Shown: piece by piece, positions 62,190-64,000 of the stretch
Numbering within the stretch: position 1 is the stretch's first letter
Layout of the letters: every line of letters begins with the position of its first letter
Assembly: GCF_003991155.1 (NCBI RefSeq)
Contig: NZ_CP031295.1
From: Escherichia coli
GTDB taxonomy: Bacteria; Pseudomonadota; Gammaproteobacteria; Enterobacterales; Enterobacteriaceae
Reading direction: 5' to 3' (one strand)
DNA length: 64,000 bases
Notes under the pieces: model-generated
Told to the model about the DNA's origin: nothing
Database searches by the model: none
What the model saw: the letters and a program-made list of their open reading frames with translations, nothing else
Position numbers and translations under genes: made by a program

Positions 62190-62869
62190 CGAAAAAAGCA
62201 GCCTTCATTACTCCAGGAGTCAGAAGGCTGAAAGGAGTTTATGAGATTTGCTTTTTTTAATATCCGGTCGGGCAGTATGACCGGCCAGTTCTGAGTAGCA
62301 CAGAGTTTTTTCCGTATTAAGTCGCGATTTTATATTTTGTGATTAATTTCACAAAATAAGGTCTTATTCAATGTGTGCTGCGATATTCAGGGGGGCTGAA
62401 ATACAGGTGCCATTTATCTGATATGGAGAATAACATGAGGAAATATATTCCACTGGTATTATTTATCTTTTCATGGCCGGTATTGTCTGCAGATGTTCAC
62501 GGGCAGATTTATGCACCAGACAGAATGAATGTTAATTAGTTTATGAATACAACAGGGGCTGATCAGCAATCACCGGAACATCGTAGCTGACGCGTTCGCA
62601 ATGCTCAGTTGTCCCCCCCGGAAACGGGAAAAAGTAAGTTTTCCCCCGCTCCCGGCGTTTTTGTAACAAAAACAGGCAAATGGGGGTAATAGTCAGCAAC
62701 AGGGAATGTGGTATTATCGCGGCGGGTGTTTGAGCCTTTCTGGTTCAGGCAAGACGCAGGTACCAGAAATGCGAAGACCCCACTCGTTAATCCATTAACT
62801 CGTGAGGTCTGCATGAAGTACCTTAACACTACTGATTGTAGCCTCTTCTTTGCTGAGAGGTCAAAGTTT

Positions 62870-63019
62870 ATGACGAAATATGCCCTTATCGGGTTGCTCG
62901 CCGTGTGCGCCACGGTGTTGTGTTTTTCACTGATATTCAGGGAACGGTTATGTGAGCTGAATATTCACAGAGGAAATACAGTGGTGCAGGTAACTCTGGC
63001 CTACGAAGCACGGAAGTAA
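62870..63019 (+). CDS. srnB: Hok/Gef-family toxin (SrnB/PndA-like, 49 aa) with in-frame upstream extension from 62813
   Basis: MTKYALIGLLAVCATVLCFSLIFRERLCELNIHRGNTVVQVTLAYEARK resembles the Hok toxin at 24550. Confidence 0.75.
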   Translation: MTKYALIGLLAVCATVLCFSLIFRERLCELNIHRGNTVVQVTLAYEARK

Positions 63020-63302: not shown

Positions 63303-63560
63303 ATGTCGCAGACAGAAAATGCAGTGACTTCCTCATCAGGCACCAAGCGTACATACCGGAAAGGTAACCCTGTTCCGGCCAGAGAGAGGCAAAGAGCTTC
63401 TCTGGCTCGCAGAAGCAACACTCATAAGGCTTTTCATGCGGTTATTCAGGCCCGGTTAAAAGACAGGCTGAGTGAACTGGCGGATGAGGAAGGTATTACT
63501 CAGGCGCAGATGCTTGAAAAACTGATTGAATCAGAGCTGAAACGCAGAGCGACTTCGTAA
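63303..63560 (+). CDS. copB: IncFII-type replication control protein CopB/RepA2
   Basis: [11 protein letters not shown]... with C-terminal [19 protein letters not shown] matches CopB as recalled. Confidence 0.8.
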
Positions 63561-63689
63561 ATATTCACATTCTTGCTTATCTCAGGAGTGAGTGGTAGAT
63601 TGCTGATCGTTTAAGGAATTTTGTGGCTGGCCACGCCGTAAGGTGGCAGGGAACTGGTTCTGATGTGGATTTACAGGAGCCAGAAAAGC

Positions 63690-63790
63690 GAAAACCCCGA
63701 TAATCTTCTTCAAGTTTGGCGACTAGAAAGATTACCGGGGCCCCATAAAACCGCATAGCCAACAATTCAGCTATGCGGGGAGTATAGTTA
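63690..63790 (-). ncRNA. copA: putative CopA antisense RNA / CopT target region
   Basis: Long imperfect hairpins (CCCCGATAATCTT...AAGATTACCGGGG and CCGCATAGC...GCTATGCGG) between copB and the leader peptide; boundaries approximate. Confidence 0.35.
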
Positions 63791-63791
63791 T

Positions 63792-63866
63792 ATGCCCGGA
63801 AAAGTTCAAGACTTCTTTCTGTGCTCACTCCTTCTGTGCATTGTAAGTGCAGGATGGTGTGGCTAA
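63792..63866 (+). CDS. tap: replication leader peptide (Tap/RepA6-like, 24 aa)
   Basis: [24 protein letters not shown] read from 63792. Confidence 0.5.
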
Positions 63867-64000
63867 TCATGAAACACATTCAGTAATAGCGGGTGGGATT
63901 GAATCAGATCTTCACATTGATTCCAGCAAGTATCCTCACCCGTTTTGCAGCCTTCTCCAGAAAAGGGCTCATTTTGACTCCTTCAAGCATCTGATCTTCA

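Follow-up and report, generated by a model that had tools for sequence, protein, structure and literature searches.

Which gene follows the leader peptide tap at the end of the 64,000-nt stretch of Escherichia coli DNA analyzed here (the window; contig NZ_CP031295.1)? The original prediction expected the start of RepA at this point and saw only a 5-codon ORF after a leader ending at 63866, so that the RepA start seemed either displaced or cut off from its leader by an insertion. Our analysis shows that the flagged sequence (63867 to 64000) is real and differs from that of R100, and that it belongs to the usual makeup of RepFIC, a common replicon type, and is not a lesion of this plasmid. In place of the initiator, the leader is followed by a 160-codon ORF (ORF160), a diverged and truncated paralog of RepA, and the initiator gene repA1 comes next.

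The window ends inside a RepFIC-type (IncFIC, IncFII-family) basic replicon consisting of copB, CopA, tap, ORF160, and repA1. Its last 3441 nt are 100% identical to pAPEC-O1-ColBM, and its last 25 kb match, at 99.7% identity, many IncFIB/IncFIC F-type plasmids with tap, WP_001273588.1 (ORF160), and RepA WP_000774297.1 among their genes. MOB-suite types the window-identical records, and that of F, as IncFIC, and the flagged 134 bp have a counterpart of ≥99% identity in 497 plasmids of PLSDB, one of which is F. RepFIC, known since 1984 to 1987, is reportedly a basic replicon of the IncFI plasmids P307 and F, and the RepFIC segment of F (NC_002483.1) is 96.6% identical to the window over 1308 nt. 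That the window might be F carrying Tn1000 was rejected on the basis of this 96.6% identity to F versus 100% to pAPEC-O1-ColBM.

On the plus strand, copB (repA2), encoding an 85-aa transcriptional repressor, occupies 63303 to 63560; in pAPEC-O1-ColBM and pCREC-544_1, the annotation of the same sequence reads "replication regulatory protein RepA," and PF10723 matches copB-homologous genes at related loci. The gene for the CopA antisense RNA lies on the minus strand at 63686 to 63774 and matches Rfam RF00042 over its full length (1 to 92) with 93.6 bits against a gathering score of 60. A consensus scan returned a sigma-70-like candidate promoter, a pattern match only, at 63781 to 63809 on the minus strand, where it is placed to drive CopA (3250 to 3222 in L002, a locus identical in sequence to the window, for which the window coordinate equals the L002 coordinate plus 60559). 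A CopA-like antisense RNA, an upstream copB/repA2, and a tap stop codon overlapping the start of the next ORF are thus all present, as in the IncFII family; the one departure is that the tap-coupled ORF has 160 codons and is not a full-length RepA (PF02387/TIGR03474). Two further observations concern the surroundings of the leader. Just upstream of the replicon, at 62724 to 63019, lies a hok/sok-type (srnB-like) postsegregational killing module, with an Rfam sok match of 90.2 bits at 62724 to 62882 and a Hok/Gef-family ORF, annotated in identical records, that ends at 63019. The CopT/tap leader itself gave a plus-strand Rfam match to PK-repZ, the IncI-type repZ pseudoknot, at 3128 to 3253 of L002 (window 63687 to 63812); at 27.2 bits (E = 0.003) against a gathering score of 44, this subthreshold match probably reflects general similarity among antisense-controlled rep leaders.

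The tap (repA6) reading frame spans 63792 to 63866 on the plus strand, with 24 codons, and identical records name its product "RepA leader peptide Tap" (WP_001442103.1); the leader end had therefore been placed correctly. It had also been held that no start codon opens a long frame in the remaining sequence, which is true of ATG and fails for GTG: the GTG at 63859 to 63861 (tgGTGtggcTAA), which has an 8-nt overlap with the tap stop, begins a frame of 47 codons that is stop-free through 64000. The ORF list consulted at the time omits frames running off the source, and the GTG frame is accordingly absent from it. The 5-codon ATG ORF (ATGAAACACATTCAGTAA) exists at 63870 to 63887 on the plus strand, but it lies out of frame within ORF160, shifted by +2 [(63870 − 63859) mod 3 = 2], and we do not regard it as a feature. 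The sequence CTGATCTTCA, which had been pointed out at the very end, is indeed there (63991 to 64000, plus strand) and is the sole exact copy in the window. It resembles the repA start motif of R100, spans the ORF160 codons H-L-I-F, and is not the start of repA.

The remainder of ORF160 and repA1 lie beyond the window and were reconstructed from identical records. In the complete relatives pAPEC-O1-ColBM and pCREC-544_1, the GTG frame is a 160-codon ORF, WP_001273588.1, annotated "hypothetical protein," which continues from 63859 to window-equivalent position 64341. A circular permutation that would let ORF160 continue at the window start was rejected, as no match was found anywhere in the window. 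At the junction ggacATGgcTGA, the UGA that ends ORF160 (AUGGCUGA) and the AUG of the next gene overlap; this gene encodes a canonical RepA1 of 285 aa, 95% identical to R100 RepA. The true repA1 start, ATGGCTGATCTCC, is at 3775 of L002, corresponding to window-equivalent position 64334. As read from the window-identical records, RepA1 thus starts 334 nt past the edge, and no normal repA with standard spacing begins just beyond 64000. Alignment of the junction to R100 is clean, with 475 bp of extra sequence between GGATGGTG and TGACTGATCT, and a three-way alignment with R100 puts the 475-bp block exactly at the tap/repA junction. The two suggestions of the original prediction were therefore each half right. 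Relative to R100, the RepA start is displaced by 475 bp, yet an initiator-like frame does begin at the expected site, GTG 63859; there is an extra block between leader and initiator, yet it is no mobile element and represents the 5′ two-thirds of a RepA paralog. As a side observation, RefSeq annotates in F a 40-aa "hypothetical protein" antisense to ORF160 (minus strand, 3938 to 4060 of locus L001, 3962 to 4084 of the F record), whose counterpart in the window is a 28-aa minus-strand ORF at 63904 to 63990; the antisense frame was probably called in error within ORF160.

The relationship of ORF160 to RepA was apparent at the profile level. With hhalign, the ORF160 family alignment matched the RepA alignment with 97.6% probability (E = 4.5e−12), residues 22 to 153 of ORF160 aligning to residues 23 to 172 of RepA at 34% identity, which identifies ORF160 as a RepA homolog. 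In tblastn comparisons, ORF160 and the N-terminal halves of Klebsiella IncFII-family RepA proteins shared 29 to 34% identity, and identity to anything outside its own family was 26 to 34%. TIGR03474 matched ORF160 weakly over model positions 21 to 124 (17 bits against a cutoff of 447) and scored 580 bits on the full RepA encoded by the next gene, beyond the window; Pfam scans of ORF160 and its family yielded no recognition, with weak generic helix-turn-helix matches only. The two proteins are collinear at both ends. A conserved FC dipeptide occupies residues 29 and 30 of ORF160 and residues 30 and 31 of RepA, which excludes an N-terminal extension of ORF160 relative to RepA, and the tail of ORF160, ARRRGNSVGGG, aligns codon for codon with ARRSRVEWEN of RepA, so that an origin of the tail from the 3′ end of a second tap was rejected. 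These alignments identify ORF160 as a diverged, truncated RepA paralog, collinear with RepA from residue 1 to approximately 178 and lacking the C-terminal third; it ends at RepA-equivalent position ~178 and is not a full-length initiator of ~285 aa. By sequence comparison, the part retained is the N-terminal winged-helix domain, for which no solved IncFII RepA structure exists for comparison. No description of ORF160 was found in the searchable full text, outside which the early RepFIC papers fall; the pAPEC-1 paper remarks on an ORF in this region that is similar only to pAPEC-O1-ColBM.

A database search recovered relatives of ORF160 from E. coli, Salmonella, Citrobacter, Lelliottia, Klebsiella, and metagenomes. 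The 15 members aligned share 65 to 100% identity and measure 156 to 163 aa, or 198 to 199 aa when an N-terminal extension is present; 56 columns are invariant, 44 of them from residue 57 onward, a part that takes in the predicted helix-turn-helix and wing. Every locus fetched (Klebsiella CP052338, L007, L008, and L010 to L014) has the order copB-(tap)-ORF160-RepA (285 aa). The ORF160 start overlaps the leader end wherever a leader ORF is identifiable, and its stop overlaps repA in all fetched loci. The tap-ORF160-repA arrangement is kept in at least nine diverged lineages.

To evaluate constraint on the protein, dN/dS was determined for ORF160 and for repA in the same pairs. Across all pairs, ORF160 as a whole gave values of 0.2 to 0.6, compared to 0.04 to 0.26 for repA, which is under stronger constraint. 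Within ORF160, the core (residues 28 to 150) gave 0.20 to 0.37, with bootstrap upper bounds of 0.36 to 0.79, and the first 27 residues gave 0.47 to 0.90, values indistinguishable from neutral. These ratios indicate that the ORF160 core is under purifying selection. Coupling could keep the frame open, but by itself it does not account for the amino acid conservation of the core. With less certainty, purifying selection on the winged-helix core suggests that the protein probably retains some role beyond that of a translated spacer, for example, binding DNA or RepA as a regulator or decoy.

At the nucleotide level, ORF160 is the most conserved stretch of the replicon among eight loci, with a mean pairwise identity of 85 to 91%, compared to 80 to 87% for the CopA/CopT region and 65 to 80% for repA; the conserved segment was noted at 3320 to 3800 of L002 (window 63880 onward). 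The dS of ORF160 is 0.2 to 0.6, versus 0.7 to 2.2 for the adjacent repA, and is 3 to 5 times lower in most pairs; in the closest pair, L008-L013, the two are about equal (0.21 for ORF160 and 0.23 for repA). GC content is 44.6% in ORF160 versus 56% in repA. The low dS of ORF160 may stem from recent recombinational spread among diverged replicons or from extra constraint at the nucleotide level. A short motif, (C/A)(T/A)GATCTTCA(T/C), of 8 to 11 nt was also seen in three copies inside ORF160 and in one altered copy at the repA1 start (window 63903 to 63914 and 63989 to 64000; L002 3646 to 3658 and 3779 to 3791). Two copies encode D-L-H, as at the N terminus of RepA. A Dam-site role for the motif is unlikely because GATC is not conserved in the Klebsiella homolog.

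How, then, would control reach an initiator that lies behind a second gene? At the first junction, the layout of R100 is kept: the Shine-Dalgarno (SD) sequence and the hairpin are the same, and the tap stop again shares an 8-nt overlap with a GTG. The hairpin, CACUCCUUCUGUGC/GUGCAGGAUGGUGUG, covers the SD sequence (AGGA) and the GTG at 63826 to 63861 on the plus strand and has the same stem as in R100. Folding of 3257 to 3337 of L002 and of 4770 to 4850 of the R100 locus (L006) gave this same stem, with weak z-scores (−0.6 and −1.7); since the z-scores are weak, the argument for this hairpin comes from its conservation in R100 and not from thermodynamics. At the second junction, a strong SD sequence, GGAGGGGG, lies 3 to 4 nt upstream of the repA1 ATG. 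A 49-nt hairpin is predicted there at −21.6 kcal/mol (z = −4.34), and none of 200 shuffled sequences folded as well. Its stem pairs UUGGAGGGGG with the downstream CUGAUCUCCUUCAA, i.e., with the first repA1 codons, and buries both the SD sequence and the ATG. A consensus fold of eight loci also contains the hairpin, and 0 of its 31 pairs showed compensatory changes; covariation is absent because the sequence of the second junction is nearly invariant. In this lineage, repA1 starts with M-T/A-D-L-L-Q, compared to M-T-D-L-H-Q in R100, and some of the bases that pair with the SD sequence come from the codon that differs. In the junction tables of 13 loci, the GTG, TTG, or ATG start of the short ORF overlaps the leader end, and the ATG of the long ORF overlaps the short-ORF stop by 8, 4, or 1 nt. 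Start/stop overlaps combined with a predicted hairpin that occludes the ribosome-binding site constitute the geometry of translational coupling. A consensus scan found no promoter-like site within ORF160, and no second antisense RNA was found within it.

In R1 and R100, repA translation reportedly depends on translation of tap, which is said to be blocked by CopA, and CopA control acts only through tap. From the stop/start overlaps and the predicted hairpin, we infer a two-step termination-reinitiation relay as the most economical reading of the RepFIC arrangement. CopA would block tap translation, as in R1/R100; ribosomes finishing tap would reinitiate on ORF160; and ribosomes finishing ORF160 would melt the hairpin over GGAGGGGG and the repA1 AUG and reinitiate there. 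Antisense control would in this manner reach the initiator by a two-step relay of translational coupling. Some independent initiation of repA1 from its strong SD sequence and ATG may also occur. As to how the arrangement arose, the initiator gene and the origin would have been replaced by recombination at the tap/rep locus, leaving behind the 5′ two-thirds of the former repA with a stop that now overlaps the new repA1 start. Taken as a whole, the reading of the locus as a RepFIC replicon with a RepA-paralog ORF160, a coupling relay, and a recombinational origin is one that we consider quite likely.

The alternative that deserves most weight, although we find it doubtful, concerns the protein and not the arrangement: ORF160 could be a fossil, the leftover 5′ part of a replaced initiator, translated only to carry ribosomes and functionless as a protein. 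Coupling alone would keep such a frame open. The approximately neutral evolution of its 27 N-terminal residues, a dN/dS that is 2 to 5 times that of repA in most pairs, and the absence of a Pfam match are consistent with a spacer; so is a GC content of 44.6% versus 56%, which fits foreign, decaying DNA, and its nucleotide conservation could stem from recent recombinational spread. However, a spacer does not readily explain a core dN/dS of 0.20 to 0.37 with upper bounds of 0.36 to 0.79, or 56 invariant columns of which 44 lie from residue 57 on and take in the predicted helix-turn-helix and wing. The length of 159 to 160 codons is kept down to 65% identity, and the short ORF ends after the N-terminal domain (~178 to 192) both here and in a second lineage described below, although a spacer need not retain a whole domain. 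A different objection bears on the relay, namely, that repA1 is translated independently from its own SD sequence and ATG and that ORF160 is simply a separate upstream gene. The site itself invites this view, as GGAGGGGG 3 to 4 nt before an ATG is far better than the GTG of R100 repA. We nonetheless judge it improbable: a repA1 translated on its own would escape CopA, whose control in R1/R100 reportedly operates only via tap; the stop/start overlap is kept in 13 of 13 loci; the SD sequence and AUG are buried in a predicted hairpin with a z-score of −4.3; and no internal promoter was found.

Two other explanations appear far less credible. Fusion of ORF160 to RepA1 by programmed +1 frameshifting in the G-rich tail is suggested by the repA1 frame, which is +1 relative to ORF160, and by GGAGGGGGA runs at the junction, but it is very unlikely, given that the overlap varies among lineages (8, 4, or 1 nt) and hence leaves no conserved slippery site, that a separate SD sequence and ATG are conserved, and that RepA1 is full length at 285 aa and 95% identical to R100 RepA. 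Least probable of all, and close to untenable, is a mobile element (IS or MITE) inserted between leader and repA. A discrete 475-bp block absent from R100 and flanked by the similar decamers TGGCTAATCA and TGGCTGATCT has the outward look of one; yet terminal inverted repeats are absent both in the block and at its ends, a single ORF, collinear with RepA, makes up the block, and the decamers are the start-codon contexts of two paralogous genes. Furthermore, the first 134 bp of the block were found once in each of the 502 records that contain them, at the same locus in the records examined. Membership in an IS or MITE family was rejected on the lack of terminal inverted repeats and on this single place per record.

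The two-step relay is best appreciated against known systems. The RepFIC replicon resembles the IncFII replicons of R1 and R100 (NR1) in copB, CopA (RF00042), a near-identical 24-codon tap, the same hairpin, and the 8-nt GTG overlap. In R100, however, the GTG opens the 285-aa initiator, whereas in the window it opens a 160-codon truncated paralog, and the initiator of the window type is set back by 475 bp, with another stop/start overlap and another hairpin in front of it. The RepFIC segment of F shares 96.6% identity with the window and differs in carrying Tn1000 inside ORF160, after codon 91 (L001 4166/4167, corresponding to L002 3573), and not in the 285-aa repA1. In F, the gamma-delta terminal repeat directly follows the ORF160 break (GGGGTTTGAGGGCCAATGGAACG; GGGGTTTGAGGGCCAATGGAACGAAAACGTACG), and the truncated database proteins P0020 and P0021, with matches to residues 1 to 91, correspond to the Tn1000-cut ORF160. 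F RepFIC is reportedly described as interrupted "in repA1"; set beside the position of Tn1000 inside ORF160, this wording suggests that early workers may have taken ORF160 for repA1. In the IncI-alpha/IncB repY-repZ systems and with other rep genes coupled to leader peptides, an antisense RNA likewise controls the initiator via translation of a preceding ORF, the stop codon of which overlaps the start of rep; those leaders, in contrast, span about 29 codons and bear no relationship to the initiator, whereas the second "leader" of RepFIC is a folded 160-codon domain paralogous to it. Shortened copies of DNA-binding replication or transposition proteins that are coexpressed with the full-length protein and act as regulators are exemplified by the short forms of R6K pi and by Tn5 Inh. 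By analogy, ORF160 could be compared to these, with the difference that they arise by internal initiation within the gene for the full-length protein and ORF160 is a separate, highly diverged gene.

An exhaustive profile search further revealed more distant short proteins of 176 to 192 aa and, with them, a second lineage of the same design, in which tap is followed by an IncFII-type RepA N-terminal fragment of 183 to 190 aa (TIGR03474 positions 1 to 173) and then by a Rep of 337 to 339 aa. The long Rep belongs to a different subfamily, matched by NF040977 only, and the stop/start overlaps are 8 or 1 nt. One such locus (L021, NZ_CP021541.1, 1644 to 3271) comprises tap, a 183-aa N-terminal fragment (WP_022631532.1), and a 337-aa Rep (WP_015065551.1), with 8-nt overlaps at both junctions; L016, L017, and L019 are further instances. 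Pairs of this type occur in ~460 PLSDB plasmids, mostly from Klebsiella, and PGAP names both genes "plasmid replication initiator RepA." The Klebsiella IncFII-related arrangement thus shares with RepFIC the succession of tap, a short RepA-N ORF, and a full Rep, and in both lineages the short ORF breaks off shortly after the N-terminal domain, at nearly the same point of RepA (RepA-equivalent ~178 to 192). It differs in that its short ORF is a clear IncFII-type N-terminal fragment, 42 to 47% identical to RepA proteins in PLSDB, compared to 26 to 34% for ORF160, and in that its downstream initiator is of the 337- to 339-aa subfamily.

Two sets of ORF160 variants were also observed. In L008 (3001 to 3120) and L014 (529 to 650), which are metagenomic or assembly variants, the ORF has 40 extra N-terminal codons (VAEQNKSQAKWDGVPSDEQIRL...) that weakly resemble the N terminus of the 338- to 339-aa Rep (MAKYSQAPAHWSTLSPDEQIRF...; E = 7e−4 in a small search). 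Judging from this resemblance, the extension may be a second layer of remnant, from another initiator swap. P0002 (163 aa, 36 member sequences) is an ORF160 variant annotated "putative replication protein RepA" with a different C terminus (…RRRGIVLEGDMCVLP). Its C-terminal sequence implies a rearranged repA1 junction in some E. coli plasmids, and the variant could serve as a natural test of whether coupling is needed.

What goes beyond existing annotation is the recognition of ORF160 as a selected, truncated RepA paralog, of the double coupling geometry, and of a parallel lineage in Klebsiella. ColV/ColBM virulence plasmids and many resistance plasmids carry RepFIC/IncFIC replicons, and major resistance plasmids carry the Klebsiella lineage; textbook IncFII control by CopA, tap, and repA has been assumed to hold unchanged for both. 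Tentatively, and as a possibility more than an expectation, at least two IncFII-family lineages, the E. coli ColV/ColBM/F-type RepFIC and that of Klebsiella, may encode an unstudied third replication protein, a stand-alone RepA winged-helix domain that could act in trans, for example, by tuning copy number as a decoy or heterodimer partner or by poisoning rival replicons of the type from which it descends, and the tap/rep junction may be a site of initiator swaps that keeps selected remnants. If the relay holds true, copy number control would include one more step that can be tuned, ORF160 should be given a name by the pipelines for replicon typing and annotation, and it might be exploited for plasmid curing or in strategies based on incompatibility, such as anti-F cassettes. 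ORF160 would then also record the exchange of initiator genes between replicons.
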